This document shows positions 2,493 to 29,908 of a DNA stretch of 32,000 nucleotides, one piece after another; position 1 is the first letter of the stretch, and each line of letters opens with the position of its first letter. The position numbers and the translations under genes were made by a program. A model generated the notes under the pieces. The model had not been told where the DNA came from. It saw nothing but the letters and a program-made list of their open reading frames with translations, and made no database searches. Origin of the DNA: Planctomycetales bacterium (GTDB lineage: Bacteria; 4484-113; JAFGCY01); assembly GCA_022646745.1 (NCBI GenBank), contig CP060262.1, positions 3,600,001-3,632,000 on the forward strand. Reading direction: 5' to 3'.

Positions 2493-3800
2493 TTAAACGG
2501 TGCCGCTGCGCTCACGCCGGAGCTGCTGCCTGCGCTCTCCTGAGGCGACCAGCATGCTTTCCCGGCTGAGGCTGCGCACCTCCGCCAGCCCAATTGCGAT
2601 GATCAGTGAGACACTGACCATGCTCACGATCAGGCTGGTGCCGCCCACTGAGAAGAATGGCAGGGTCAGTCCACTGTTGGGCACTACATTCGTGGTTACC
2701 GCGATATTTACCATCGCCTGCAGGCAAATCGTGAATCCAATTGCGGCTGCGACTGTCCTGTGGAATGGTTCCCGGCAGCGGCCTGCGAGTTCGGAAGAAA
2801 ACCAGGCGAGGGCCACGAACAGCCCCATCACGAAGATCCCGCCGAGCAAGCCCAGCTCCTCGATGATGATCGGGAAGACGAAGTCGGTGCGTGCGAAGGG
2901 CAGGCGGTTGAGCTTCTGTTCGCTGCGGAGGTAGCCGCGGCCAGCGGTGCCACCATCGATGATCGCACCCATAGACTGGGTGATCTGGAATGAGGCGGCG
3001 TTCTCGTTCTCCATCGGGTTGCGAAAGGTCTCCAGCCGCTGGCTGACGTAGGGCACGAAATACGGCGCCACGTAGAACACGGACAGCCCGAGCACGACCA
3101 GCGTGGCCAGGATGGCAATCTTCTGCATGCGGCTGATGCCGGCGATGAACAGCGTGATCACGCTGGCGGCCACGATGATCGCGGTACTGCCGAGGTCCGG
3201 CTGGATCACGGTGAAGCCCGCTGCAGCCCCGATCGCAAGGAAGGCCAGCAGCGGGGCATGCGGCCAGTTGGGCCGCCTGCTGCTGAGCACCCTGCCCTGT
3301 TCCTTGGCCTTCAGTATCTCCTCAGGCTGGCGACGCCACCAGCACAGCAGCTGGGCAAGGTAGAGGATCAGGAACAGCTTCAGCAGTTCCGACGACTGGA
3401 AGGTGATGCCCATCACCTCGATCGAACGCGTGGCACCGTTGGCGGATACACCAAGGTCCGTCAGGGAAACGAGTGCAACAAGTGAGAGGCTGACCAGGAA
3501 GAACACCGGGATCACGAAGCGCGCCCAGCGGCGGATCGGCGAGAAGGCGACAAAGGCGCTGATGCCGACGAGGCTCAGCACCACGCCGATGCCCATCATC
3601 ATCATGTGGCGGATGAAGTCGCCGTAGGGAGCTTCACCGGCGGCAATGTTCGAGTAGACCGTGGTTGAATAGACCATCGCGGCACCCATCAGCATCAGCA
3701 GGATGAGCACGATGGCAACGCTGCGCACGGAGGCCTGCAGCGCACGGATGCGCGGACGCGCGCTGAGTGCCACTGGAGACGTCTGAGTCTCGTATCCCAC
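2493..3800 (-). CDS. ftsW: SEDS-family peptidoglycan polymerase FtsW (GTG start)
   Basis: 435-aa polytopic membrane protein of the FtsW/RodA/SpoVE type (...QPDLGSTAII..., ...TDFVFPIIIEELGLLGG..., ...GLTLPFFSVGGTSL...). It lies directly downstream of murD in the dcw cluster. Confidence 0.85.
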   Translation of the reverse strand: MGYETQTSPVALSARPRIRALQASVRSVAIVLILLMLMGAAMVYSTTVYSNIAAGEAPYGDFIRHMMMMGIGVVLSLVGISAFVAFSPIRRWARFVIPVFFLVSLSLVALVSLTDLGVSANGATRSIEVMGITFQSSELLKLFLILYLAQLLCWWRRQPEEILKAKEQGRVLSSRRPNWPHAPLLAFLAIGAAAGFTVIQPDLGSTAIIVAASVITLFIAGISRMQKIAILATLVVLGLSVFYVAPYFVPYVSQRLETFRNPMENENAASFQITQSMGAIIDGGTAGRGYLRSEQKLNRLPFARTDFVFPIIIEELGLLGGIFVMGLFVALAWFSSELAGRCREPFHRTVAAAIGFTICLQAMVNIAVTTNVVPNSGLTLPFFSVGGTSLIVSMVSVSLIIAIGLAEVRSLSRESMLVASGERRQQLRRERSGTV

Positions 3801-15689: not shown

Positions 15690-18600
15690 ATGCGAATCGA
15701 AAGAAGGTTTACTGAAAAGGGACAGTCTCCATACGAGCAGATCGATTGGAGCAGCCGCAACAGCGTGATCTACAACCCGGACGGCAGCGTCGTCTTCGAG
15801 ATGAAGGACGCGCAGATCCCGGCGGACTGGAGCCAGCTGGCAACGGACATCATGGTCTCCAAGTACTTCCGCAAGGCCGGAGTGCCACAGACGGATGCCA
15901 GTGGCAAGCCCCTGCTTGATGCGGATGGCAATCCCGTGCTTGGCCCCGAGAATAGTGCCGCCCAGGTGATCCATCGCCTGACCGGCTGCTGGACGGACTG
16001 GGGACAGCGCTATGGCTACTTCGACACTGAGGAGGATGCCACTGCCTTCCGTGACGAGCTGGCCTGGTCACTGCTGACGCAGATGGCCGCCCCCAACAGC
16101 CCGCAGTGGTTCAACACCGGACTGTACTGGGCCTACGGCATCAACGGCCCCAGCCAGGGACATTACTATGTTGACGCCGACAGCGGTGAACTGCGTGCAT
16201 CCGAGGATGCCTACAGCCATCCGCAGCCACATGCCTGCTTCATCCAGAGCGTACGCGACGACCTCGTGAACGAGGGCGGGATCATGGATCTCTGGGTGCG
16301 TGAGGCACGCCTGTTCAAGTATGGCAGCGGCACCGGCACCAACTTCAGCGCACTGCGCGGTGAGGGTGAGTCCCTCAGTGGCGGCGGCCAGTCCAGCGGA
16401 CTGATGAGCTTCCTCAAGATCGGTGACCGTGCCGCTGGGGCGATCAAGTCCGGCGGCACCACGCGCCGCGCCGCCAAGATGGTCTGCCTGGACGTTGACC
16501 ACCCGGACATCGAGAAGTTCATCAACTGGAAAGTACACGAGGAGGACAAGGTCGCCGCACTCGTCGCCGGTGGCAAGGGCCGCTTCGACACCGCCTTCGA
16601 GGGCGAAGCCTACAGCACCGTCAGCGGACAGAACAGCAACAATTCCGTGCGCCTGACGAATGCCTTCCTCGAGGCCGCTGTCAACAACAGCAGCTGGGAC
16701 CTCATCAACCGCACGAATGGCGATGTCAGCAAGACGATTGACGCCGCCAGCCTCTGGCAGCAGATCGGCTATGCTGCCTGGCGCTGCGCCGATCCCGGCG
16801 TGCAGTTCGACACCACGATCAACGAATGGCATACCTGCCCGCAAAGCGGCCGGATCAATGCCTCCAACCCCTGCAGCGAGTACATGTTCCTTGACGACAC
16901 CGCCTGCAACCTGGCCAGCCTGAACCTGATGAAGTTCATTGACGAGGCCACGGGCGACTTCGACCTGGACAGCTACCGGCACTTCATCCGCCTGTGGACG
17001 ATCGTGCTCGAGATCTCAGTGCTGATGGCGCAGTTCCCCAGCCGCGAGATCGCGCAGAAATCATATGACTTCCGTACGCTCGGCCTCGGTTATGCCAACC
17101 TCGGCACCTGCCTGATGGTGATGGGCATCCCCTATGACAGTGACAAGGGCCGGGCGATCGCTGCCGCGATGACTGCGATCATGACTGGCGATTCCTATGC
17201 CGCCAGTGCCGAAATGGCAGCGGAACTCGGGGCCTTCCCGAAGTATGCGGAGAACCGTGAATCCATGCTGCGCGTGATGCGCAACCACCGCCGCGCTGCC
17301 CATAACAATGCCGCGACTGACTATGAGGGATTGTCAATCAATCCGCAGGGCATCGAGCATGCTAGCTGCCCGGACTACCTCGCCAGCCAGGCGATTGCCA
17401 GCTGGGACCGCGCTTTGGAGCTCGGTGAGCAGCATGGCTACCGCAATGCCCAGACCACTGTGATCGCCCCGACCGGTACCATCGGCCTGCTGATGGACTG
17501 CGACACCACCGGTGTCGAGCCGGACTTCGCGCTCGTCAAGTTCAAGAAGCTGGCGGGCGGCGGCTACTTCAAGATCATCAACCAGAGCATCCCGCTCGCG
17601 CTTGCCAACCTCGGCTATGACCAGAAGCAGATCGGTGAGATCCGCCGCTGGGTGCTGGGCAGCAGCCGACTGGACGACCATTCGATCAATGCCGACAGCC
17701 TGCGTGAGCTGGGCATGAATGACAACGACATTGAGCGCATCGAGGCCCAGCTGCCCGGCGTGTTCGAGCTGCACTTCGCCTTCTCGCCCTTCACCCTCGG
17801 TGAGGAATGCATGCAGCGCATGGGCTTCAAGCCCGAGCAGTACGACGCCCCCGGCTTCAACCTGCTGCGTGCGCTGGGCTACACCGCCGAGCAAATCAGC
17901 CGTGCCAACGACCACATCTGCGGCATGATGACGGTGGAGGGTGCACCGCACCTGCGCGAGGAACACCTGCCGGTGTTCGACTGTGCCAACCGCTGCGGCC
18001 GCCATGGCCAGCGCTTCATCCACCACACCGGGCACATCCGCATGATGGGGGCCGTGCAGCCATTCATCAGCGGTGCGATCAGCAAGACGATCAACATGCC
18101 AAATGAAGTGAGCGTGGAGGACATCCAGGAGTCATACCTGCTGTCCTGGCAACTGGGCCTGAAGAGCAACGCCCTGTACCGTGATGGCTGCAAGCTCAGC
18201 CAGCCGCTGAACACAAAGGCGGATGCGCAGGAGGATGACAGCGAGGTACTGGAGGAGGTTGCCATCGCCGAGCAGGCACTGCAGCCAGAGCAGCATGAAA
18301 GCCTCGTCAACCCGGCGAACTACACCCCTGCGGAGCAGCGCGTGCCGGTCAGCCCGGCCGAGGCCCGCACCCTGCAGATCCACGCCCCGCTGCGCCGCCC
18401 GCTGCCAAGGAAGCGCAAGGGCTTCACCTTCGAGGGCCGCATCGGCGGGCACAAGCTCTACCTGCGCACCGGCGAGTACAGCGACGGCACGCTCGGCGAG
18501 GTCTTCATCGACATGCACAAGGAAGGCGCCGCCTTCCGCAGCCTGATGAACTGCTTCGCGATCGCCGTCAGCAAGGGACTGCAGTACGGCGTACCGCTGG

Positions 18601-19130
18601 AGGAGTTCGTTGACACCTTCGTGTTCACGCGCTTCGAGCCGAGCGGCACCTGCGACCACCCGAACATCAAGATGGCGCAGAGCGTGATCGATTACGTGTT
18701 CCGCGTGCTCGGTATGGAATACCTCGGCCGCACGGACTTCGTGCAGGTCAAACCCGCCGCCGATGAGCTGATCCTCAACCAAAACGAGCGCCAGATCCGC
18801 CTCGAGGCCCAGCCGCTGGTCAGCGCCAGTGAGGCTGCCCGTGCGGACCGCGAAGCCGGTGATGCCCCCCTGCCCCATGGCAACGGCAATGGCGGAAACG
18901 GGCATTCAGTCCATCCGCCCCAGCCGGTGCTCAGTGGCAATGGGAATGGAAACAGCAACGGTAACGGGAATGGCAATGGTGCGCGGCATGCCACCAGCAA
19001 TGCGATGGAGGAGCAGCTCAGCTCAATGATGGGTGACGCCCCCTTCTGCGAATCCTGCGGGCATGTGACGGTGCGCAACGGCTCCTGCTACAAGTGCCTC
19101 AACTGCGGTACCAGCCAGGGCTGCAGCTAG
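15690..19130 (+). CDS. nrdJ: class II (adenosylcobalamin-dependent) ribonucleotide reductase, long form
   Basis: 1146 aa. The N-terminus [23 protein letters not shown]...[12 protein letters not shown] and core motifs (...[21 protein letters not shown]..., ...[32 protein letters not shown]...) are typical of NrdJ. There is a C-terminal CxxC...CxxC zinc-ribbon tail (CESCGH...CYKCLNCG). GAGG lies 7 nt upstream of the ATG. Confidence 0.93.
19103..19128 (+). repeat. Direct repeat copy 1 (last 26 nt of the nrdJ coding sequence)
   Basis: CTGCGGTACCAGCCAGGGCTGCAGCT recurs at 22080-22105 with one mismatch (T/C). Confidence 0.9.
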
Positions 19131-19290
19131 GCAAGAACTAACAGCATTCAGGTATTCCAGCAAATCCCCATTAGTTGGGAAGTCTGTGAAGTCCAGTTAT
19201 ACTCTTCTTGGGTGCTGGACCTGTCCGGCACTGGTTGGAATACAGGAACCCTGTGTTACACCGAAGCGGCTGAATGAACTGGGGGTTTGC

Positions 19291-22071
19291 ATGCGAACAA
19301 TCTTTGTGATTTCGTGCTTACTATTGCTGCAACTTGTTGCCTGTAGCAAAGTTAATACTCCTGAGTTCTCTGCCAGTCCACAGGTACAGCCGACTGGCAT
19401 TCCCGGTTCCCCTGCTTCACCTGATTCGGGTAGCCCAGATGTCTCACCGCAATTTCCGCTGGATCTCAGTCCAGTAGCTGCCAGAAACTCCATCACTTCC
19501 AATACCGGTCCCGGTACATACCAGGTACTTGGGAAAAGCAGCCACTCGGAGTCATTAACAGGTACGACAATTCATGATGCCGCATTGGCCATTGACAGCT
19601 CGATTGACGGGCTGGCTTACGGCATCTGGCGCATCCAGATGAAAGATTCGCAACCCGGCCTGATCCGACTGGATGTCAATCTCCACCAGAATAATGCCGG
19701 ACTGCCTTCTCAGTTCATGGTTGGCATAGCGGACTATTCCAGTGGTCGCTGGAATCTCCAGGGGCCATTTACTGATGGCCATCTTCTTCTTACAACCGCC
19801 GCAGATGTGCTGGCTGGCAGCGACTATCTCTCTCCTGGCAATGCAATGTTTGTTTCCGTGATCTGCTCCGATGACAATCGGCTGGACATGCTGGCGGTCT
19901 GTGCCGCTGAATTGATTGCCGTTGACCAGAGTCCCCCGACGGCGATCAGCGGAGTCAGCGCTACTGCCATTGCTGGTGGAATGTACCTTGAATGGTCGCC
20001 CAACCTCAATCCGGACCTGGCAGGATACAGGCTGCTTTACTCTGAGGTCAGCTTCGAGGATGCTGAAGATCCCAATGTGCAGATCATGCCCAGCCTGGCG
20101 GGAACAACAAGCTACATTGTCAGGCATTCTTCTCCGGAACTGTATGTACGTGTGCAGGCAGTTGACAGGACTGGCAACCTCGGTCCCCTGAGCGAACAGG
20201 TAATGGTACAGCCCCTCCCTGACGAGCCGACGCAGTTGCTGCTGAATGTCGATGCCCCCAGCGGAAAGTCCGGAACGGTCTTCACACTCCAGACTGGCGG
20301 TGCTGCAGAAATTCTGCTGGATCTTGACTACGACGGATTCTTTGACGACGGCAGCTGGGATGGCAATCCAATCAGCATAGATTCATTTGGAAGGACCGGC
20401 ATCCTGAGGTTTCGGGCACTCGGTGAGAATCCTGGCAATGCCGTTTCCATTGCGGAGGTTTCAGTCTTTGTCGATGGCAACGCCAGTCCAGTAGTCGGGC
20501 TCACCGCCAGCGTTTATGCGGGGGACGCCCCACTGCTTGTGGACTTCACCGCAGACGCACATGATAATGAAGACCCGCTGGAAGAACTTACCTTCAAATG
20601 GGACCTTGACGGGGATCATGTGTACGAACTGGAGACCGAATCACCTGAAGTCATCAGTGAATTGTATGAGTTCCCTGGTGTTTACTATGTTTCCTGCCGT
20701 GTTTTCGATACGGATGGCGCATATGGCTATGACGATTTACCGATACATGTCTACGGTGAAGGACTCGAGGACCAAATGCCGGTTGCAGTTTTGTACACGA
20801 ATCCCACAAATTTTGGGATTGCCCCTTGCGAGGCAAACTTCAACGGCTCATCAAGCAGTGACCCAAATGGAACCATAGAACTCTACGAGTACGACTTCGA
20901 AGGGGATGGCATCTACGACGTGCCCACCACTGAATATGACCTCGTTTTCCATATTTATCAGGATCCAGGAACTTACTATCCCAAGCTTCGAGTCACTGAC
21001 AACGACGGATGGCAGGCCGTGGAGCAGAGACCTTTGGAGATAGCAGATCTGGAAGGCTGGTCAACCTACAAGGTCTACGATGGTGAGCAGTATGAATTTG
21101 ATGCAATCAGGCTGGGGATATCCGGCTCAAGTCCGGTGTTTTGCAATATCTGGGAAGATGCACCATTTGTCCGCTTCATAAACAGCCTGGACCCTGGAGG
21201 CAGTTCATGGAGCGATCCCGTAGTGGTCAGTACTGTCAGTCAAGCTGCTGGCGTTTCCATCATGGCAGTAAATGGCCTACCCGCCTTCTCCTTCGAACTG
21301 GACGGTTTTCTCAATTTCGTGCGTGCTGCTGACAATGCCGGATCCACCTGGTTGACTCCAGTACAGGCAGCTCCAATAATTGGTGCCAGTCACGCTTCAA
21401 TGGCGATCGTGGATGGCAATCCGGCAATCGCATTCCAGTACGGATATGATATCAACTGTGAGCTGCACTATGTGCGTGCCGCGGACGCGTCTGGTGACAG
21501 CTGGAATGATGTCGTCGTCGTTGAGAGTGAGATTCGTCCGGGAGGTGCCCCGCACCTGGCCGTGGTTGCCGGCAATCCCGCCATCTGCCACCATGAGTTC
21601 ACATCTTCGGACCTGCTGTACGTCCGTGCACTTGACAGCGAGGGAACCACCTGGGGCAACAGCATTGTGGTGGCCTCTGCTGGCGATGTCGGATTGCAGA
21701 GCAGCATGGAAATTGTCAATGGAAAGCCAGCTATCAGCTTCTACAAGGCGTACTTTGATCTGATGTATGTACGTGCGCAGGATGAGTTCGGTGCAAGCTG
21801 GGGAAGCCCTGTTCTCTTGTCTGAGGATTACACTAAATCCAGGGAGCCGATGAAGCTGATGCTTGTCGATGGGCGTCCTGCTGTTTCATATCCGGACAGG
21901 ATGCTTGGTGTCATGCAATTCCTTCAGGCCGAGGATATGAACGGCGCCAGCTGGAATGAGCCACTGCCTGTTTCCAATTCTATGGGCTCGCAGATGGTTG
22001 TGCTTTCAGACGGCCGTCCGGCATTCTATGAATATTTTGATAATGACATCCTGCTTACAGTCAGGGACTGA
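19291..22071 (+). CDS. secreted lipoprotein with an FN3-like domain, two PKD domains and a C-terminal ~7-blade Asp-box (BNR) beta-propeller
   Basis: I place the start at the ATG at 19291 (MRTIFVISCLLLLQLVAC|SK, a lipobox). FN3-like segment (...GGMYLEWSPNLNPDLAGYRLLY...). Two PKD-like segments (...VDFTADAHD...FKWDLDGD...YYVSCRVFDTDG... and ...ANFNGSSSSDPNG...YDFEGDG...YYPKLRVTDNDG...). Seven G-x-PA...[YF]VRA-x-D-x-x-G-x-x-W repeats. GC is clearly lower than in neighbouring genes. Confidence 0.8.
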   Translation: MRTIFVISCLLLLQLVACSKVNTPEFSASPQVQPTGIPGSPASPDSGSPDVSPQFPLDLSPVAARNSITSNTGPGTYQVLGKSSHSESLTGTTIHDAALAIDSSIDGLAYGIWRIQMKDSQPGLIRLDVNLHQNNAGLPSQFMVGIADYSSGRWNLQGPFTDGHLLLTTAADVLAGSDYLSPGNAMFVSVICSDDNRLDMLAVCAAELIAVDQSPPTAISGVSATAIAGGMYLEWSPNLNPDLAGYRLLYSEVSFEDAEDPNVQIMPSLAGTTSYIVRHSSPELYVRVQAVDRTGNLGPLSEQVMVQPLPDEPTQLLLNVDAPSGKSGTVFTLQTGGAAEILLDLDYDGFFDDGSWDGNPISIDSFGRTGILRFRALGENPGNAVSIAEVSVFVDGNASPVVGLTASVYAGDAPLLVDFTADAHDNEDPLEELTFKWDLDGDHVYELETESPEVISELYEFPGVYYVSCRVFDTDGAYGYDDLPIHVYGEGLEDQMPVAVLYTNPTNFGIAPCEANFNGSSSSDPNGTIELYEYDFEGDGIYDVPTTEYDLVFHIYQDPGTYYPKLRVTDNDGWQAVEQRPLEIADLEGWSTYKVYDGEQYEFDAIRLGISGSSPVFCNIWEDAPFVRFINSLDPGGSSWSDPVVVSTVSQAAGVSIMAVNGLPAFSFELDGFLNFVRAADNAGSTWLTPVQAAPIIGASHASMAIVDGNPAIAFQYGYDINCELHYVRAADASGDSWNDVVVVESEIRPGGAPHLAVVAGNPAICHHEFTSSDLLYVRALDSEGTTWGNSIVVASAGDVGLQSSMEIVNGKPAISFYKAYFDLMYVRAQDEFGASWGSPVLLSEDYTKSREPMKLMLVDGRPAVSYPDRMLGVMQFLQAEDMNGASWNEPLPVSNSMGSQMVVLSDGRPAFYEYFDNDILLTVRD

Positions 22072-22079
22072 ATGCTGAC

Positions 22080-22105
22080 CTGCGGCACCAGCCAGGGCTG
22101 CAGCT
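22080..22105 (+). repeat. Direct repeat copy 2 (orphan copy of the nrdJ 3' end)
   Basis: CTGCGGCACCAGCCAGGGCTGCAGCT followed by GA. In frame it still spells CGTSQGCS-stop, identical to the NrdJ C-terminus. With the 6 preceding nt the match is ~28/32. Confidence 0.9.
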
Positions 22106-22112
22106 GATTCCA

Positions 22113-22140
22113 GGTTGCCGGTTGCAGGGTTCAGGTTGCT
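22113..22140 (+). repeat. GGTTGC short tandem-repeat tract
   Basis: GGTTGCcGGTTGCagGGTTCaGGTTGC immediately after repeat copy 2. The same repeat unit occurs as (GGTTGCT)n at 26639-26668 inside dnaE2. Confidence 0.75.
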
Positions 22141-22234
22141 GTTTACAGCCAAGGCTGGAAAGCAACTGAATCCAGCTTGATTGAGCATGGAAATGCATGT
22201 TCGCCGACCGGTCGGAATGGAATAGAATTCGCTC

Positions 22235-22645
22235 ATGCCTGTTGCATCACCGAGCCCCGTGCTGTTCATCCTTTATGTCTCCGACCAGCAGCGCAGTTGC
22301 GACTTCTACCGCAAGGCACTTGAGCTTGAGCCTGAGCTGGACGTACCGGGGATGACGGAATTCCGGTTGAATAGCGGTGCGATGCTCGGCCTGATGCCTG
22401 AGGCGGGCATCGCGCGGATCATCGGTGACGATCCGGCCCCCGCCAGTGGCAATGGCATTCCGCGTGCCGAACTGTACCTGTCCGTGGATGACCCCGGAGC
22501 TGCGATCGGGCGTGCAATCGAGGCCGGCGCTGTGATGCTCAGTGTGTTGCAGCCACGTAACTGGGGCGACATTGCAGGATACGTACGCGACCCTGACGGC
22601 CATGTGCTGGCCTTCGCAAGTTGCAGCGTCTCATTGACTCAGTGA
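22235..22645 (+). CDS. VOC (glyoxalase/bleomycin-resistance/dioxygenase) family protein
   Basis: 136 aa. The size and pattern (...VLFILYVSDQQRSCDFYRKALELEP...AELYLSVDDPGAAIGRAIEAGA...GYVRDPDGHVLAF) match single-domain VOC proteins. Confidence 0.75.
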   Translation: MPVASPSPVLFILYVSDQQRSCDFYRKALELEPELDVPGMTEFRLNSGAMLGLMPEAGIARIIGDDPAPASGNGIPRAELYLSVDDPGAAIGRAIEAGAVMLSVLQPRNWGDIAGYVRDPDGHVLAFASCSVSLTQ

Positions 22646-22731
22646 CTCCATGACTCTCCTACCTGCTGGAAACCAGCGCTCTGACTGTTCTTACTGTTCA
22701 ACTCCCTCTGCCCCCTGCGAGCTATTTTTAC

Positions 22732-22772
22732 TACACATTTGTATTTTCCACGTTATACTATACACATGTATG
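22732..22772 (+). promoter_or_regulatory. Putative dinB promoter with two operator-like sites
   Basis: -35-like TACACA (22732-22737), 16-nt spacer, -10-like TATACT (22754-22759). Near-palindromes TACACATTTGTA (22732-22743) and TACACATGTATG (22761-22772). The same layout occurs upstream of dnaE2. Confidence 0.45.
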
Positions 22773-22792
22773 GACAAGCGGAAAGAATCATC

Positions 22793-24178
22793 ATGCTGGC
22801 GGACATGGACTGCTTCTTCGTTGAGGTGGAGCGCCTGCACCGGCCGGAGCTGCGTGGCCAGGCCGTGATCATCGGCGGGCAGCCGCACCGGCGCGGCGTG
22901 GTCTCCGCCTGCAGCTATGAGGCACGGCGCTTCGGGGTGCACAGCGCGATGCCGATGGGCGAGGCCTACCGCCGGCTGGGGCTGGACCCCTCCCATCCGC
23001 TGGCCGAGGGGCAGACCATCGAGCGCCGCGGCGTGACGGTCAACTTCCTGCACAGCGGGCTGCATGGCAACTATGGGCTGTACAGCCGCCGCGTGCAGGA
23101 CGTGGTCTCGTCGCTTGTGCCGGTGTTCCGGCCGAAGAGCGTGGACGAGTTCGAGATGGACATCACCGGCTGCGAGACCATCTTCCGGCGCGACTACGGC
23201 GGGATCGTCGAATTCGCCGAGGAGCTGCGCCGCCGGGTGAGAAGCGAGGTCGGCCTGCCGATGTCAATCGGGATCGGCCCCGGGCGGCTCGTCGCCAAGA
23301 TGGCCAGCCGCCACGCCAAGCCCGACGGGGTGTTCCGTGTGCTGCCGCAGGAGGCCGTGTCCTTCCTCGCCCCGCATGATGTGCAGGACGTGCCGGGGAT
23401 CGGCCCGGCCACGGCGGGCACACTGCGCGACATGGGGATCAACCGCGTCGGCCAGCTGCTCCAGCAGGACCAGGCGCTGCTGCGCCAGACCTTCGGGATC
23501 GGGATGTGGAGCCTCGTCAATACGCTGAAGCACGGCGAGGACCGCGCGGTGCCGCCGCCCAACACCGGCGGCGGGATGAGCGAGCATGGCTCGATGGGGC
23601 TGCTGATGCGCGAGGACGGGCATGAGTCGCCGGCGATCGGCTTCGGCCCGGCGCGCGGCAAGCCGAAGAGCATTGGGCATTCGGTGACGCTGGAGCGCGA
23701 CACGCTGGATACGGCGCTGATCAGGCGCACGCTGTGGCGCCTGACGGAGGATGCCTGCCGGCGGCTGCGGGAGAAGGACCTGGCGGCCGGGCATGTTACT
23801 GTCACGATCCGCTACAGCGACTTCCAGACCATCAGCCACGGCGTGATGCTGAATGAACCGACGGACCTCGACCGCGTGGTCTATGAGACGGCGCTGCGAC
23901 TGTTTGACGAGGCGCGCACGCGCCGCCTGCGCATCCGCCTGCTGGGGGTGCGCCTCGAGAAGCTCAAGCCCGGCCTGAGCCAGCTCAGCCTGTTCGAACC
24001 GAAGAGCGTGACGCGTGAGCGCCAACTGACGCATACGCTGGATGCCCTGCGCGAGAAGCACGGCCGCGACGTGGTGCTGCTCGGCCCGGGGGTGAACCAG
24101 ATCGGCAGCGAGCGCATCAGCACGGATAGCCAGGCCGGCGTGTCAGTGAGCATGAGCCCGCAGCGGAGTGCGGTGTAG
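22793..24178 (+). CDS. dinB: DNA polymerase IV (Y-family translesion polymerase)
   Basis: I place the start at Met 19 of the ORF (MLADMDCFFVEVE..., the canonical catalytic DMDxFF motif), with GGAAAGAA upstream. Also SACSYEARRFGV, SIGIGPGRLVAKMAS, VQDVPGIGPATAGTL. 461 aa, longer than typical because of a linker insertion. Confidence 0.9.
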   Translation: MLADMDCFFVEVERLHRPELRGQAVIIGGQPHRRGVVSACSYEARRFGVHSAMPMGEAYRRLGLDPSHPLAEGQTIERRGVTVNFLHSGLHGNYGLYSRRVQDVVSSLVPVFRPKSVDEFEMDITGCETIFRRDYGGIVEFAEELRRRVRSEVGLPMSIGIGPGRLVAKMASRHAKPDGVFRVLPQEAVSFLAPHDVQDVPGIGPATAGTLRDMGINRVGQLLQQDQALLRQTFGIGMWSLVNTLKHGEDRAVPPPNTGGGMSEHGSMGLLMREDGHESPAIGFGPARGKPKSIGHSVTLERDTLDTALIRRTLWRLTEDACRRLREKDLAAGHVTVTIRYSDFQTISHGVMLNEPTDLDRVVYETALRLFDEARTRRLRIRLLGVRLEKLKPGLSQLSLFEPKSVTRERQLTHTLDALREKHGRDVVLLGPGVNQIGSERISTDSQAGVSVSMSPQRSAV

Positions 24179-24190
24179 GGGCGGGGCACT

Positions 24191-24308
24191 GGAGGTCATT
24201 CCCATGGAATGACAGGTTTGCAAGCCCATGGCTTGCAGCAGGCCAGATGTGAAGGGAATGTGCCAATCCATGGCACTGGCCTCCTGCCAGACCGTGGGTC
24301 TGGCCTCC
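24191..24308 (+). repeat. 118-bp nested-palindrome (MITE/REP-like) element, copy 1
   Basis: Four 19-nt hairpins (8-bp stem, 3-nt loop): GTCATTCC-CAT-GGAATGAC (24195-24213), TGCAAGCC-CAT-GGCTTGCA (24219-24237), a degenerate GCCAATCC-ATG-GCACTGGC (24262-24280), and GCCAGACC-GTG-GGTCTGGC (24286-24304). The ends GGAGGTCA... and ...GGCCTCC are inverted. Confidence 0.8.
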
Positions 24309-24333
24309 CCCCTCCCCCGGTTACAATCCATCC

Positions 24334-25416
24334 ATGAACATCCCAAACGGCATCTGCATCGCGGCGCTCTGCTGCCTGCTTGGTTGCGGCGGTGGCTCCA
24401 GCCCCGATCCCGGCAGCAATGGAAATGGCAACGGTAACGGTAATGGCAATGGAAACCAGCCGCCCGCCGGGACGCAGGTCAGCAACAGCCGCCTGCGCAG
24501 TGTGACGGACTGGGTCTACTGGATCCAGGATCCGGATCTCACGGCGCTCGCCGCCGGCGACAGCCAGCTCGTGGTTATTGACTATTCCCAGGACGGCACG
24601 CAGGACACGGCCTTCAGCCCAGCGCAGATCAGCGCGCTCCAGGCCGGCGGGCGGCTCGTGGTCTGCTATCTGAGCATCGGCGAGGCCGAGGACTACCGCT
24701 TCTACTGGGGCCAGCAGGACGGCAGCACGGGGGCGGACTGGGGCAGTGACCCGCCCGCCTGGCTGGGGCCGACCAACCCGGACTGGGCCGGCAACTACAA
24801 GGTGCGCTACTGGGACCCCGGGTGGCAGCAGCTGATCATTGCCAATCCCGGCGGGCATCCCGTGCTGGGGGACGCCCCAAGCTACCTCGACCGGATCATC
24901 GATGCCGGCTTCGACGGGGTCTTCCTCGACATCGTGGACGGCTTCGAGTACTGGGGTCCGGCGGAGGACGGCGGCATTGGACAGCGTGCGCAGGCTGCCT
25001 CTGACATGGCGGACTTCCTCGCGGCGCTGGCAGCGCATGCCCGCAGCCGGGACGCAGACTTCATCATCTGCCAGCAGAACGGCGAGGCCCTGATCAGCGA
25101 TGAGCTGGCCCAGCCACTGGACAGCTCACGGCGCCAGGCTGTGCTTTCGGCGGTGGACTGGCTCAGCGTGGAGGACGTGTTCTACCAGGGCGAGCTGGAT
25201 GCCAACAATCCGCTGGATCCTGACAACTACCGCATCGGCCTGATCGATGCCTACCGCAACGCGGGTGAGTTCGTGAGCATCATCGACTACTTCGATGCCG
25301 CTGAACCTGGCTACAGTGCGGCAGCCGAGGCGGACTTCCTGAACCGCAGCAAGGCCCGCGGCTGGCTGCCCTATGCGGGAGTACGGGCGCTTGACCGCCT
25401 GGGCAGCGGCGGCTGA
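24334..25416 (+). CDS. GH114-like (TM1410/endo-alpha-1,4-polygalactosaminidase-type TIM-barrel) putative glycoside hydrolase lipoprotein
   Basis: 360 aa. Lipobox MNIPNGICIAALCCLLGC|GG followed by a (GN)n linker. The motifs ...VVCYLSIGEAEDYRFYW..., ...YKVRYWDPGWQ..., ...GFDGVFLDIVD... fit my recollection of the GH114/TM1410 family. Confidence 0.7.
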   Translation: MNIPNGICIAALCCLLGCGGGSSPDPGSNGNGNGNGNGNGNQPPAGTQVSNSRLRSVTDWVYWIQDPDLTALAAGDSQLVVIDYSQDGTQDTAFSPAQISALQAGGRLVVCYLSIGEAEDYRFYWGQQDGSTGADWGSDPPAWLGPTNPDWAGNYKVRYWDPGWQQLIIANPGGHPVLGDAPSYLDRIIDAGFDGVFLDIVDGFEYWGPAEDGGIGQRAQAASDMADFLAALAAHARSRDADFIICQQNGEALISDELAQPLDSSRRQAVLSAVDWLSVEDVFYQGELDANNPLDPDNYRIGLIDAYRNAGEFVSIIDYFDAAEPGYSAAAEADFLNRSKARGWLPYAGVRALDRLGSGG

Positions 25417-25426
25417 GGGGAGGCCC

Positions 25427-25544
25427 GGAGGTCATTCCCATGGAATGACAGGCCTGCAAGCCCATGGCTTGCACTTTGAAGTGATTCTGTCCGCGTTGCC
25501 AATCCATGGGATTGGCCTCCTGTCAGGCCATGGGCCTGACCTCC
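25427..25544 (+). repeat. 118-bp nested-palindrome (MITE/REP-like) element, copy 2
   Basis: Same four-hairpin layout: GTCATTCC-CAT-GGAATGAC, TGCAAGCC-CAT-GGCTTGCA, GCCAATCC-ATG-GGATTGGC, GTCAGGCC-ATG-GGCCTGAC. The 26-nt terminal inverted repeats GGAGGTCATTCCCATGGAATGACAGG and CCTGTCAGGCCATGGGCCTGACCTCC match at 22/26 when one is reverse-complemented. Confidence 0.85.
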
Positions 25545-25630
25545 CGCATACCACGTCATTCAGCGCGACCCGGATGCGCTGATGCGCAGCTGCAGCGCTA
25601 GACCGCCGAGTGCTTGCATGAGGCGGCGAA

Positions 25631-28600
25631 TCACACCGGTGCATAGCTCGCGGGCTTGCTGCCCTTGCGGCGGCCGCCCTCGGCATCGTCGGCAACGAGG
25701 CGGTCCAGCTCATCGAGGCGCAGGAGCTTCAGCTCCTGGATTGACAATGTGCAGGTGCCGAACTGCTCCTCCACCTTGCCGGTGATCAAAAACGGCCCGG
25801 TGTAGCGCGTGAGCGGGGCGTAGCGGGCGTACTTGTCAGCGCGCAGGGTGCATTCGAAGGTGCCGGTCAGGTCCTCCATGCTCATGAACTTCATCGAGTT
25901 GCCGGGCCCGATGAATCCTCCCATCGTATGCGAGTCCGTCCCGCGGTTGCGGGACGGTGAGGTACCAGGGACCTGGGACCCGGGACCGGAAGAGGTTTCG
26001 GGTTTCGGGTTTCGGGTTTCGGTACCCGTAGCGGCGGCTTCCAGCCGCCGTCCGGCAGTTGCCGGTAGTGAGTTGTCAGTTTCAGCAAATCCATGGGATT
26101 GGCCTCCTGTCAGGCCATGGGCCTGACCTCCTACTCCCTCCTGACTCTTGCCAGTTCCCCGTTCCCCGTTCCCTGTTCCATCCCCGCGGCCCACGGCCCA
26201 GTCGTCGGTCATGCCGCCGCGCCTGACCAGGCCGAGGTCGGCCGCTGTGTCATTCAGCTCGTAGTCCTCGTCGCCACCGATGCCGCTCACGCTCAGTTCA
26301 TCCTCGTCGGCGGTGTACTGCTCCGGGTCATCATGGTTGGCAGCCTGCAGCTCGATCATGTCCTGCACCTGCCGGCGGCGCGAGAGGTCGACGCGCTTGG
26401 TGGCGATGCACCAGCCGAGCATCCGCACCCAGCGCCCGGCGTAGCGCGGCATCTCGCGGGCGTCGACAAGCCCGCTGACGAGGTTGGCATACAGGCTCAG
26501 GGGGTGGCGGCGCACCAGCATGCCGTAATGCTTCAGCTCGAGCGCGCAGAGCTTCAGCTCGTCGTAGTCATCGAGCCGTCCGGCCATGCGGCGGCGGAAC
26601 TCCTCAAGGCGAGCCGTCTCGTCGAATGGCAACTGGGAGGTTACTGGTTGCTGGTTGCTGGTTGCTGGTACTCCGGCAGCCGGCCCGTTTGACATCCCCA
26701 CCCGTGGATCTCCTTCGTCGATCCCCTCCCGGGATGTCCGGCTGCCAGGATAGGGATCAGAGATGCGGGATGCGGGATGAGCATTCCTGACACGCTCATT
26801 GCTCATTGCTCCCTGCTCATTGCCGGAGGAGTAATTGTCAGCTTCAGGGCTGACCTCCGTTCCATGGTCCCCGATCCCCGGTCCCCGGTCCCTGACCCGT
26901 CGCTTCGGCGTCGAATGCCGCAGTCCCGCTTTCCTCTCCTGCTGGGCCAGCCAGAGCAGCTCCGGGCGGCTCATGCCGAGGCTGTCCAGCGCCCCGGCCA
27001 GAACCAGCAGGTCGAGCTCCGACTCCGAGGGCCCGCAGCGGCGGATGAAGTCCGGCAGGCTGCGGAAGGGGCCATGCCCGCGGGCGGAAACGATGCGCTC
27101 GGTGATGGCAATCGGCAGGCCCTTGATGACTACGAGGGGCAGACGGATTGAGGAGCTTGGAGGTTGGAGTGTGGAGGTTGGAGCAGATGAGGGACCAGGG
27201 ACCCGGGACCCGGGACCAGAAGAGATTGGAGCTTGGAGGTTTGAGGTTGCAGTAGCGGCGGCTTCCAGCCGCCGGCTGGAGGGATGAGCAGTCCCGCCAC
27301 GCTCCTTGCTCATTGCTGCCTGCTCATTGCTCTGTGTCCTCTGTGCCTCTGTGGTTGACAATATGTGTTGTGCGGCTTGCACCGCACCTCCATCCTGGTC
27401 CCCGGTCCCCGATCCCTGATCCCTGTTGTCAGCCTCACGGCTGGGCTCCGCTGCCAATCCATGGGATTGGCCTCCTGTCAGGCCACGGGCCTGACCTCCT
27501 TCTCCCATCCCACATCCCCCATCCCGCATCCCGCATTCCGCACTGTAGTTCAGCCCCGAATGGTTGACATCCGGTGGCAGGATCGACAGGCCGAGTCGCT
27601 CGCATTCACTGATGTAGGCCCGCGCGCCGTAGAAGCCGCCGCCGTTGTCAAGCACCGCCGCCATGAACTGCGCCGGGTAGTGCGCCTTCAGCCAGGCCAC
27701 CTGGTAGCTCAGCGTGGCGAAGCTCGCCGAATGCGCCTTGCAGAAGCTGTAGCCGCTGAAGCTCGCCAGCTGCCGCCAGATCTCCAGCGCACTCGCCGTA
27801 TCCATCCCGCGCGCCTCGCAGCCGCTGACGAACTTCTCGCCCAGCGCCAGCATGCCGTCATGACGGTGCGGCTTGCTCATCACGCGGCGCATCAGGTCGG
27901 CATCGCTGCGTGACAACCCGGCCAGCTCATGCGCCACGCGGATCACATCCTCCTGGTAGATCATCACCCCATGCGTCTCCGGCAGCAGCTCCAGCATGCG
28001 CGGATGCGTGCGCAGCTCATGACGCGCCCCGTTCACACGGCGGATGTACTCCTGCATCATCCCGCTCTCCGCCACGCCAGGGCGGATCACGCTGGATGCC
28101 GCCGTCAGGCCGAGGAAGTCGCGCACGCCCAGCCGCTTCAGCAGCTGGCGCATGGCCGGGCTTTCGATGTAGAAGCAGCCCATCGTTTCGCCATGCCTGA
28201 CGAGCGCGTTCGTGGCCGGGTCCTGCGAGACCTGCTCGTGGTCCGTCAGGTCCGGCTTCAGGCCCTGTTCCCTGAGCGTTGCCAGGGTGTCCTCCAGCAC
28301 GCCGAGGCTGCGGTTGCCCAAGAGGTCGATCTTGATCAGCCCGACGGCCTCCACCGGGTGCATGTCGTACTGCGTGACGACGAAGCCCTTGGCGGCGCGC
28401 TGCAGACCGGTGAAGTAGTCCACATGGTTCGGCGCGATCACGATCCCGCCGCAGTGGATGCCGAGGTGCCGTGGCCGTCCGGCGAGCCGCGTTGCCAGCG
28501 GCAGCACGTGGCAGTATGGTTCGCTGTGCAGGTCCACGCCGCGCATCTCCGGGAAGTCGCGCACCACGCTGTCCAGCCCCGAGGCGCGGATGTTCGGCAG

Positions 28601-29908
28601 GAAGCGGCTGATGGTGCTGATCTCGCGGTCGCCGAGGCCATAGACCTTGGCAACCTCGCGCAGGGCCGAGCGTGCGCGGAAGGTCACGTGCGTGCTGATC
28701 ATGGCGACACGCTCATGGCCCCAGCGGTCGTAGACGTACTGCACGATCTCATCGCGCCGCCGCCAGTTGAAGTCGATGTCGATGTCCGGCGGGCTCTTGC
28801 GCGCCGGGTTGAGGAAGCGCTCGAAGTACATGTCGTAGCGGATCGGATCCACCGGTGTGAGGCCCAAAAGCCAGCTCACGAGCGAGTTGGCGGCCGAACC
28901 GCGCCCGAGGCAGGGGATGCGGCGGCGGCGGGACTCGCGCACGATGTCGTACACAGCGAGGAAGTAGCTGGTGTAGCCCAGCCGGTCGATCGCACCGAGC
29001 TCCATCTCGAGGCGCGCGAGGTACTCCTCCGTGGGGTGGCCGAACTTCAGGTCCAGGCTGCGGCGGCACAGGCCATGCAGCGCACGCGCCGGGTCGCCAC
29101 CGCCGGGCAGTTCGTAATGCGGGAACAGCCACTTGCCGTACTCGAACTCCACGTTCGTGGCCATTGCCAGCTTGCGGGCGTTGTCAAGCGCCTGCGGGCA
29201 GTCGTAGTAGTAGCCGCCCAGTTCCGTCGGTGCGCCGAGGTAGTGCCAGTTGCGGCGCACGCCGCGCGCAGTGTCCATCCCGCTGTTCTGCCCGATCGCG
29301 CGCAGCACGTGGTGCACCGGCTGGTCCTGCGGTCGCAGGAAGTGCACGTCGGTGCAGGCCACCGGGTGCAGCTTCAGCTCGCGGGCCAGCTTGAGCTGGC
29401 GGATCTGGCGCGCGCGCAGCTGCTCGCCGTAGTCCGGGGAGCAGCGCATGAACACGCGGTTGGGGCCAAGGCGCTTGAGCAGGATGCGCAGCAGCTCGTC
29501 GCGGTCACTGATGATCCAGCAGTGCTCGGTGTTGCCAAGCAGGGCGCGGGCCAGGTTGAACTGCGGGTCAAGCTGCCTGAGCGTGGCCAGCCGGCACAGC
29601 TCGCCGTAGCCGTCACGGTCGCGCGCGATCACCAGTGCGGCGGAGGCAGTCGGATCGGCGATGCCGGCCTCCAGCGAACGCCGCCCGGCCTGGGCCTTCA
29701 GTTCCTGCGGGTCGGTGAGGCTGATGCCGAGGACGGGGTGGATGCCGCACTTCAGGGCTGCGCGGTGGAAATGCAGCAGGCCATAGCAGCCGTCGGTATC
29801 GGCGATGCCGAAGGCCTCGAAGCCCAGCTCCGCCGCCTGCACGCAGAGATCCTCGGGGGCGCTGACCCCGTCATGGAAGCTGTACCAGCTGTGCGCGTCG
29901 AGATGCAC
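25631..29908 (-). CDS. dnaE2: DnaE2-type (error-prone, ImuC-like) DNA polymerase III alpha-subunit homologue with three in-frame insertions
   Basis: 1425 aa, GTG start. N-terminal PHP domain (HLDAHSWYSFHDGVS...IADTDGCYG), palm/fingers motifs (...PDIDIDFNWRRRDEI..., ...HCGGIVIAP..., ...GLIKIDLLGNRSL..., ...FCKAHSASFA...), and a C-terminal OB-fold region (...MKFMSMEDLTGTFECTL...). Removing the ~390 inserted codons leaves ~1035 aa, within the size range I recall for DnaE2. Confidence 0.85.
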   Translation of the reverse strand: MHLDAHSWYSFHDGVSAPEDLCVQAAELGFEAFGIADTDGCYGLLHFHRAALKCGIHPVLGISLTDPQELKAQAGRRSLEAGIADPTASAALVIARDRDGYGELCRLATLRQLDPQFNLARALLGNTEHCWIISDRDELLRILLKRLGPNRVFMRCSPDYGEQLRARQIRQLKLARELKLHPVACTDVHFLRPQDQPVHHVLRAIGQNSGMDTARGVRRNWHYLGAPTELGGYYYDCPQALDNARKLAMATNVEFEYGKWLFPHYELPGGGDPARALHGLCRRSLDLKFGHPTEEYLARLEMELGAIDRLGYTSYFLAVYDIVRESRRRRIPCLGRGSAANSLVSWLLGLTPVDPIRYDMYFERFLNPARKSPPDIDIDFNWRRRDEIVQYVYDRWGHERVAMISTHVTFRARSALREVAKVYGLGDREISTISRFLPNIRASGLDSVVRDFPEMRGVDLHSEPYCHVLPLATRLAGRPRHLGIHCGGIVIAPNHVDYFTGLQRAAKGFVVTQYDMHPVEAVGLIKIDLLGNRSLGVLEDTLATLREQGLKPDLTDHEQVSQDPATNALVRHGETMGCFYIESPAMRQLLKRLGVRDFLGLTAASSVIRPGVAESGMMQEYIRRVNGARHELRTHPRMLELLPETHGVMIYQEDVIRVAHELAGLSRSDADLMRRVMSKPHRHDGMLALGEKFVSGCEARGMDTASALEIWRQLASFSGYSFCKAHSASFATLSYQVAWLKAHYPAQFMAAVLDNGGGFYGARAYISECERLGLSILPPDVNHSGLNYSAECGMRDGGCGMGEGGQARGLTGGQSHGLAAEPSREADNRDQGSGTGDQDGGAVQAAQHILSTTEAQRTQSNEQAAMSKERGGTAHPSSRRLEAAATATSNLQAPISSGPGSRVPGPSSAPTSTLQPPSSSIRLPLVVIKGLPIAITERIVSARGHGPFRSLPDFIRRCGPSESELDLLVLAGALDSLGMSRPELLWLAQQERKAGLRHSTPKRRVRDRGPGIGDHGTEVSPEADNYSSGNEQGAMSNERVRNAHPASRISDPYPGSRTSREGIDEGDPRVGMSNGPAAGVPATSNQQPVTSQLPFDETARLEEFRRRMAGRLDDYDELKLCALELKHYGMLVRRHPLSLYANLVSGLVDAREMPRYAGRWVRMLGWCIATKRVDLSRRRQVQDMIELQAANHDDPEQYTADEDELSVSGIGGDEDYELNDTAADLGLVRRGGMTDDWAVGRGDGTGNGERGTGKSQEGVGGQAHGLTGGQSHGFAETDNSLPATAGRRLEAAATGTETRNPKPETSSGPGSQVPGTSPSRNRGTDSHTMGGFIGPGNSMKFMSMEDLTGTFECTLRADKYARYAPLTRYTGPFLITGKVEEQFGTCTLSIQELKLLRLDELDRLVADDAEGGRRKGSKPASYAPV
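25900..26390. repeat. dnaE2 in-frame insertion 3 (inside the OB-fold loop); modular repeats at 25935-26179
   Basis: Modules in order: hairpin CCGTCCCGC-GGTT-GCGGGACGG; GGGACC tract 25966-25989; (GGGTTTC)4 25994-26022; 23-nt GTAGCGGCGGCTTCCAGCCGCCG 26028-26050; half-element (hairpins C+D) 26085-26131; (GTTCCCC)3 26154-26179. Boundaries are approximate. Confidence 0.75.
26635..26925. repeat. dnaE2 in-frame insertion 2 (linker before the OB fold)
   Basis: Modules in order: (GGTTGCT)n 26639-26668; long hairpin GGCAGCCGG...CCGGCTGCC; (GATGCGG)n 26762-26782; 51-nt module 26774-26824; hairpin GTCAGC-TTCAGG-GCTGAC flanked by GGAGG/CCTCC; (GGTCCCC)n 26867-26898. Boundaries are approximate. Confidence 0.75.
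27149..27540. repeat. dnaE2 in-frame insertion 1 (between ...DVNHSGLNYSAE and IRLPLVVIKGL...)
   Basis: Modules in order: GGAGNTTGGAGGTT tracts 27152-27184 and 27226-27250; GGGACC tract 27191-27218; 23-nt GTAGCGGCGGCTTCCAGCCGCCG 27252-27274; 51-nt module 27281-27331; CTCTGTG repeats; hairpin GTGCGG-CTTGCA-CCGCAC; inverted GGTCCCC tract 27397-27425; half-element 27453-27499; CATCCC tract 27506-27540. Confidence 0.8.

Follow-up and report, generated by a model that had tools for sequence, protein, structure and literature searches.

Paired hairpin composites in an uncultured bacterial lineage are very probably REPIN/BIME-like members of a RAYT-associated REP family

Two copies of a 118-nt, hairpin-rich element bracket a lipoprotein gene in the window (i.e., the whole 32,000-nt stretch of DNA analysed here), and raise the question of what kind of element they are. 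A preliminary description left the choice between a MITE and a REP/BIME-like family. The anatomy of the elements, the covariation of their stems, their restriction to one lineage, the absence of target-site duplications (TSDs) and the pairing of RAYT transposase genes with REP units together argue strongly for REPIN/BIME-like composites belonging to a RAYT-associated REP family of one uncultured lineage.

Inspection of the sequence agrees with the layout previously claimed for the two copies: two hairpins, a spacer and two further hairpins in the opposite orientation (Table 1), with the outer 26 nt of each copy forming inverted repeats. The spacer is 24 nt long in both copies and is not conserved, and the inner hairpins (B and C) carry a weaker tag, AGGNN. 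Each copy had been described as containing four hairpins with 8-bp stems. This is true of copy 2, in which all four are perfect, and untrue of hairpin C in copy 1. The latter reads GCCAATCC-ATG-GCACTGGC, pairs at 6 of its 8 stem positions, and is absent from the list of units drawn up with at most one mismatch. Its left arm is the 'gccaatcc' variant and its right arm the 'gccagtgc' variant; the pairing is incomplete because the arms derive from two different variants.

Table 1. Positions of the hairpin composites, neighbouring genes and in-frame units in the window.
Feature	Position	Strand	Remarks
DinB (Pol IV) gene	22739-24178	+	Stop codon 13 nt before copy 1
REPIN-like composite, copy 1	24191-24308		From sequence, motif scan and folding
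Copy 1, hairpin A (outer unit)	24191-24214	+	GGAG tag
Copy 1, hairpin B (inner unit)	24215-24237	+	Tag AGGTT
Copy 1, spacer	24238-24261		
Copy 1, hairpin C (inner unit)	24262-24284	-	Degenerate, 6/8 pairs
Copy 1, hairpin D (outer unit)	24285-24308	-	
GH114 lipoprotein gene	24334-25416	+	Bracketed by copies 1 and 2
REPIN-like composite, copy 2	25427-25544		4/4 hairpins perfect
Copy 2, hairpin A	25427-25450		
Copy 2, hairpin B	25451-25473		
Copy 2, spacer	25474-25497		
Copy 2, hairpin C	25498-25520		
Copy 2, hairpin D	25521-25544		
DnaE-like Pol III alpha ORF	25631-29908	-	1425 aa; PHP, Pol III alpha, finger and HhH domains; open through all three inserts
dnaE insert 3	25922-26194	-	
Type I tandem doublet, insert 3	26084-26131	-	Half copy (C+D only); in frame GGQAHGLT-GGQSHGFA
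dnaE insert 2	26639-26905	-	
Type II-like unit, insert 2	26837-26858	-	GGAG-GTCAGCC-ctga-AGCTGAC, 1 mismatch
dnaE insert 1	27155-27538	-	
Sister-type unit, insert 1	27368-27391	-	GGAG-GTGCGGT-gcaa-GCCGCAC, 1 mismatch; in frame GGAVQAAQ
Type I tandem doublet, insert 1	27452-27499	-	Half copy (C+D only); in frame GGQARGLT-GGQSHGLA

The full hairpin motif GGAGGTCANNCCCATGGNNTGACAGG (three mismatches or fewer) has seven matches in the window and none in 100 dinucleotide shuffles. By itself the CCCATGG core shows no enrichment there (13 occurrences observed, 10.3 expected); only the full hairpin motif is specific. Two extra half copies that the preliminary description does not contain lie within an ORF (the type I tandem doublets of Table 1). 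Folding supports the proposed structure: the full copies fold with z-scores of -5.3 to -7.5 on both strands, and 0 of 200 shuffles fold equally well. The flanks of copies 1 and 2 were compared for a TSD and, as had been reported, neither copy is bounded by a direct repeat.

The 118-nt composite that was originally taken as the element is real; the basic repeat is a 24-nt unit. This unit, hereafter type I, consists of a GGAG tag, an 8-bp stem, a CAT loop, the 8-bp 3' arm and a final A. The inner two stem pairs are C-G, and the loop reads ATG on the opposite strand. Type I units occur as (i) singlets, (ii) tandem doublets and triplets in 24-nt register, (iii) long direct arrays, and (iv) inverted doublets with spacers of 20-200 nt. 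The 118-nt element is thus an inverted doublet of doublets, a composite of 24-nt units. Inverted doublets with a spacer are present at both window copies and at seven other loci (L004, L005, L017, L043, L056, L065 and L074).

Type I is one of three hairpin types in the lineage, all of them GGAG-tagged: type II has a 7-bp stem and a 4-nt loop, and type III an 8-bp stem and a CTTGN loop. GGAG is the invariant tetranucleotide at the foot of the hairpin. A second tetranucleotide, GTAG, precedes 17 of 69 outer units by 10 nt or less (1.2 expected), where the invariant tag is still GGAG; the dinB stop codon falls within such a GTAG. At one locus of the genome AC1.30 (L029, 5660-6080), some 17 GGAG-hairpin units of mixed types follow directly after a stop codon as a direct tandem array in 24-25-nt register; in the UBA03 orthologue (L027) the array is much shorter. 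It can also be seen that the GGAGG tag equals the Shine-Dalgarno core and, in type I, is followed 8 nt further on by the ATG of the CCCATGG core (e.g., 24191-24207), while the opposite strand of the tag reads CCUCC and is anti-Shine-Dalgarno-like. Transcripts of REP units might conceivably, with such a tag, titrate or pause ribosomes.

The preliminary description pointed to compensatory substitutions and, from them, to a constraint on structure. The difference between the D hairpins of the two window copies is exactly as described (GTCAGGCC/GGCCTGAC versus GCCAGACC/GGTCTGGC). However, both D variants prove to be the two commonest master variants across the genomes, which argues that the two copies carry different, pre-existing unit variants rather than changes compensated in place. 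Evidence for the constraint itself comes from the family as a whole. A set of 39 distinct units was picked by tag, CC/GG core and loop only, so that the outer six stem positions were left unconstrained. Standard pairs fill 93.3% of cells in this set, compared with 78.0% in column shuffles, and cells with a double change number 54, compared with 20.6; 500 shuffles produced no value as high in either measure. When the register is slid, pairing falls to 16-43%. Stem positions 2, 5 and 6 switch between alternative pairs (U-A/C-G, G-C/U-A/A-U and U-A/G-C/A-U, respectively). This family-wide covariation shows that the hairpin matters, although compensatory patterns in DNA palindromes can also arise without selection, by hairpin-templated repair or gene conversion.

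An exact-pattern scan with GGAGGYCANNCCCRYGGNNTGRCA over one genome per species (185,579 species genomes) returned 76 loci, 53 of which come from four related MAGs: UBP7 HKST-UBA01, UBP7 HKST-UBA03, bacterium AC1.30 and 'Planctomycetales' bacterium Ww346, with 11-27 exact matches per genome. The remaining 23 loci are scattered over unrelated genomes; 21 have a single match, and the hits are by our estimate at about the level of chance. The element is therefore not peculiar to the window; the family is real, dispersed and lineage-restricted, with a modest copy number in the tens per genome. Genes flanking the elements in the window are 96-98% identical to those of UBA01 and 90-94% identical to those of AC1.30, while Ww346 is more distant (72-85% nucleotide identity). 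The lineage bears the labels UBP7 and '4484-113'.

Both window copies lie 11-13 nt past stop codons, with neighbours that are co-directional or, for copy 2, convergent. Copy 1 ends 25 nt before the GH114 start codon, and copy 2 begins 11 nt past the GH114 stop codon. REPs have been described in such positions (PMC3733652). Orthologous sites keep their units even though the intergenic flanks are unalignable, and the number of units differs between orthologues (e.g., AC1.30 has one additional hairpin at the copy 1 site). No clean pair of filled and empty sites was found for a type I unit among the loci, because these were all ascertained by the presence of the motif. In the same neighbourhood, the GH114 cassette (24179-25630 region) is present in AC1.30 (L008) and replaced by two other ORFs in UBA01 (L042), from which the gene for a PKD-domain protein (19186-22071, in the 19131-22725 region) is also missing; REP copies are hence found at synteny breakpoints between near-identical genomes.

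The absence of a transposase from the window, as originally noted, is borne out for RAYTs by tblastn searches with E. coli RayT, an IS200 TnpA and ten clade RAYTs, which gave only weak matches in the window (E of 0.017 or above). Relatives do encode such enzymes. With E. coli RayT as the query, tblastn identified a 207-aa ORF in UBA01 (L004, 1402-2025, minus strand) that matches Pfam Y1_Tnp and scores 106.6 bits against NF047646, the NCBIfam model 'REP-associated tyrosine transposase' (curated cutoff, 80 bits). Its best PDB match is 4ER8 (TnpA-REP), the best match of clade member P0001. Across clade RAYTs, NF047646 scores are 98.5, 100.4, 93.9, 95.1 and 106.6 bits, and the IS200 model stays below its cutoff. 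The UBA01 ORF belongs to a cassette of low GC content with inverted GGAG-GCGCGCAA-cttgt-TTGCGCGC hairpins at its borders; the orthologous AC1.30 site has two inverted hairpins and no gene. This type III cassette (L004, 1330-2100) abuts a truncated type I unit (GTAGCGGAGGTCAGGCC|CGGAGGCGCGC), and its AC1.30 counterpart (L017, 2370-2460) consists of the REPIN-like hairpin pair only.

The flanks of clade RAYTs were surveyed by homologue search followed by inspection of the encoding contigs, leaving out P0005, whose contig was not located. On the located contigs every clade RAYT is flanked by inverted arrays of GGAG hairpins, each RAYT by its own type. Type II hairpins flank P0010, P0241 and P0243 (AC1.30), P0245 (Ww346) and P0011; type III hairpins flank P0001 and P0004; and type I hairpins, those of the window, flank P0008 (L084/L085) and P0009 (L090). 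The search for a RAYT/IS200-type transposase that the preliminary description had recommended thus leads to two RAYT genes, both scoring 98-100 bits against NF047646 and hence above its cutoff. Around P0008 (L084), units at 1798, 1822 and 1846 (plus strand) precede the gene at 2001-2600, and four units follow it at 2670-2794 (minus strand); P0009 has the same layout. Among the units flanking P0008 are GGAGGTCATTCCCATGGAATGAC, which is window hairpin A exactly, and GGAGGCCAGACCCACGGTCTGGCAGG, which is exactly the reverse complement of hairpin D in copy 1. The P0008 contig is an ENA entry labelled Bacteria_4484_113_JAFGCY0. Its genome is a relative, as judged by a syntenic AspRS-HAD-RAYT arrangement and an AspRS that is 88% identical in amino acids to that of UBA01.

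Closer to the window, in about 440 kb sampled from the four closest genomes, no RAYT flanked by type I units was found. The AC1.30 protein nearest to P0008 and P0009 is P0264 (58% and 66% identity, respectively), encoded by a gene that is truncated at its N-terminal end and retains a single type-I-stem hairpin downstream. This suggests that the type I RAYT may be decaying in the sub-lineage of the window, where type I units may now be immobile.

REP units also occur inside a gene. The DnaE-like ORF next to copy 2 contains three inserts (Table 1), which are mosaics of REP units and heptamer microrepeats (GGGTTTC, CTGGTTG, GATGCGG and GGTCCCC/GATCCCT); GGQAHGLTGGQSHGF is an example of a predicted peptide. 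The sister-type unit of insert 1 fits neither type II nor type III cleanly, with a type III-like stem and a type II-like 4-nt loop. Alignment to E. coli DnaE skips query residues ~788-925, and excision of the inserts turns three HMM stretches into a single collinear one. Even then only the superfamily model TIGR00594 scores above its cutoff, which gives no assignment to DnaE1 or DnaE2. Between about one fifth and one quarter of the protein consists of insert sequence: excision gives about 305 of its 1425 residues, and alignment gives 373. Clade members have DnaE proteins of 1077-1443 aa, compared with ~1010-1070 aa in other phyla. The closest homologues share the same three insert sites with varying insert lengths, and distant ones have extra sites, in some cases up to nine. 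The inserts turn over rapidly between close relatives, and the ORF still remains open.

Coding units are always read in the GGA-GGN frame, giving GGQxHGLx (type I), GGPEQSGQ (type II) or GGAxQAAQ (type III). Type I units in the same frame are found in an ABC ATPase gene (three in AC1.30, two in UBA03). Among 67 unit clusters, only those in dnaE and the ABC ATPase gene fall in real ORFs; candidate ORFs over other clusters (L010, L026, L041, L044, L048, L065 and others) were rejected because they lack coding-like GC3 or run antisense. One might imagine that REP units are a routine source of protein sequence in this lineage, a proposal that we regard as doubtful; the frame-biased, hypervariable linkers could be selected (e.g., for tuning an error-prone polymerase), or could arise as a by-product of RAYTs acting at replication forks. 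In AC1.30, the dnaE orthologue (L073, 1114-6816, minus strand) has a second, degenerate C-terminal copy with stop codons, lying between the N-terminal part and the intact C-terminal copy; this is either a decaying duplication or a long-read assembly error.

How would such a family spread? By analogy with E. coli TnpA-REP and the IS200/IS605 transposases, a RAYT would bind the hairpin extruded in single-stranded DNA and read the tag at the foot of the stem. It would cut and rejoin single strands, such that units and inverted doublets would be copied without a TSD, the inverted doublet presumably being the copied unit (PMC3479197, PMC3337134). Inserted copies would then remain at orthologous sites over long times, most of them directly past genes, with which they are probably co-transcribed; their RNA may act as a 3' hairpin or stabilise 3' ends. 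Units landing in frame in tolerant protein loops would survive as extra peptide segments, as seen in the DnaE-like polymerase and the ABC ATPase.

Several features of the composites are open to other readings. Inverted repeats over the outer 26 nt and a length of 118 nt, which is within the size range of MITEs, bring to mind a classical MITE, that is, a deletion derivative of an insertion sequence with a DDE transposase, bearing 26-nt terminal inverted repeats and inserted with a TSD. Such an origin is very unlikely given that a TSD is seen at neither copy, that the 24-nt units also occur alone, in direct arrays and in other combinations, that a multi-copy insertion sequence is absent among the sampled loci, and that the same units flank Y1/HUH RAYT genes instead. 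It is because RAYT genes in relatives are flanked by the same units that we place the elements in a REPIN/BIME-like REP family. The REP/BIME half of the preliminary choice has accordingly been kept, on the grounds of a dispersed family, covariation, lack of a TSD and a cognate RAYT; the MITE half, with its terminal repeats, TSD and DDE transposase, has been dropped. A structured RNA element (a 3' UTR stabiliser or attenuator, an sRNA or a riboregulator), selected at the RNA level and spread by recombination, would explain why both copies lie just past stop codons and fold strongly, and why each unit has GGAGG and ATG separated by 8 nt in a Shine-Dalgarno-like arrangement; many REPs have, moreover, been argued to act as RNA (PMC3733652). 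This reading is also improbable, if less so than a MITE: the whole window has no Rfam match at gathering thresholds (neither CRISPR nor another RNA family), a scan of 23900-25900 for intrinsic terminators and promoters found none at the elements, nor a T tract of the terminator kind, folding is equally good on both strands, and units are found in both orientations, within ORFs and around RAYT genes. An RNA role is plausible as a secondary one and disfavoured as the origin or primary identity of the elements.

That the elements are at heart a protein-coding repeat (a GGQxHGLx module under selection at the protein level, with the intergenic copies as decayed gene fragments) would account for the GGx frame shared by all verified coding copies. 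We consider this highly improbable, since real ORFs cover the units only in dnaE and the ABC ATPase gene, variation among units keeps base pairing and not codons, and the best-preserved copies are intergenic. Least credible of all is an assembly artefact, in which collapsed or chimeric repeats would have created the copies. MAG assemblies are error-prone at repeats, and the AC1.30 dnaE region looks disordered; nevertheless, independent assemblies hold the same elements, with L008 carrying copy 1 and the beginning of copy 2 at the orthologous position, the dnaE doublet also present in UBA01 (L042), and an identical 1425-aa DnaE in another assembly (P0121). A CRISPR array was likewise rejected, as the units abut in 24-nt register without unique spacers and the Rfam search gave no CRISPR match.

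The closest known counterpart to the proposed REP family is the REP/REPIN-RAYT system of E. coli (TnpA-REP, 4ER8) and P. fluorescens SBW25 (GI-GIII) (PMC3116915, PMC3337134, PMC3479197). Shared features are (i) a short palindrome as the unit, with a conserved tetranucleotide at the hairpin foot, (ii) inverted doublets around a spacer, mostly extragenic and downstream of genes and without a TSD, (iii) RAYT genes between inverted copies of their own REP type, with several RAYT/REP pairs per lineage, and (iv) one RAYT at a syntenic position (AspRS-HAD-RAYT). The present family differs in its tag (GGAG rather than GTAG), in having two hairpins per arm and a strict 24-nt module, in its long direct tandem arrays of mixed hairpin types, and in its host, an uncultured lineage rather than Proteobacteria. 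Within the GTAG REP superfamily, some REPs are intragenic, lying in the ORFs of genes for replication and repair, such as those of error-prone DnaE2 and of the R. conorii DnaE (Di Nocera et al. 2013, PMC3733652). The same work reports that intragenic REP dimers and clusters encode tens of residues, that GTAG often gives a TAG stop codon, and that intragenic REPs compare with the Rickettsia palindromic elements (RPEs). The units described here resemble that superfamily in being intragenic in a DnaE-like gene and in the dinB stop that falls in GTAG; they differ in that GTAG is only enriched near outer units (17/69), and in that the DnaE inserts are much larger and vary in length among orthologues. 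RPEs have no known dedicated transposase, and RPE-1 insertions are longer than REP units (PMC3733652). Like the present units, RPEs are palindromic repeats in frame within functional protein genes, but their sequence is unrelated and their tag is CGTC instead of GGAG. E. coli BIMEs, too, lie between genes and are mosaics in which several REP variants cluster with short linkers. In BIMEs, Y and Z REPs alternate in orientation, with defined linker motifs and binding of IHF or gyrase, whereas the arrays described here are direct.

With this family, a well-delimited REP/RAYT system not described before comes to light in an uncultured lineage of phylum level. Its pairing is unusually clear—three hairpin types with one tag and one module length, each with its own RAYT paralogue—and it therefore offers a natural system for studying hairpin discrimination by RAYTs. 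In one genome the type I RAYT appears to have been lost and the REPs to have stayed, which is relevant to the debate on REPINs as parasites or as partners inherited vertically over the long term. Intragenic REPs in dnaE and dnaE2 are already known (PMC3733652) and it is their extent that stands out here; a DnaE-like gene so heavily colonised in frame extends the earlier view that REPs have a preference for genes of replication and repair. In annotation, the family accounts for over-long, low-complexity DnaE proteins and for 'orphan' intergenic palindromes in these MAGs.

Two further kinds of repeat were seen in the window. Dispersed repeats of ~60 nt at 25559-25618 and 26681-26740 are unrelated to the hairpin units and recur as modules in L030, L034, L042, L051, L063, L073 and L074; the 26681-26740 module is intergenic in UBA01 and lies in frame within dnaE as SRTSREGIDEGDPRVGMS. 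Finally, (AATGGN)n repeats at 18933-18979 and 24406-24452 encode GNGNGN linkers, the former near the C-terminus of an ORF with class II ribonucleotide reductase domains (15690-19130), and the latter just after the lipoprotein signal peptide of the GH114 protein.
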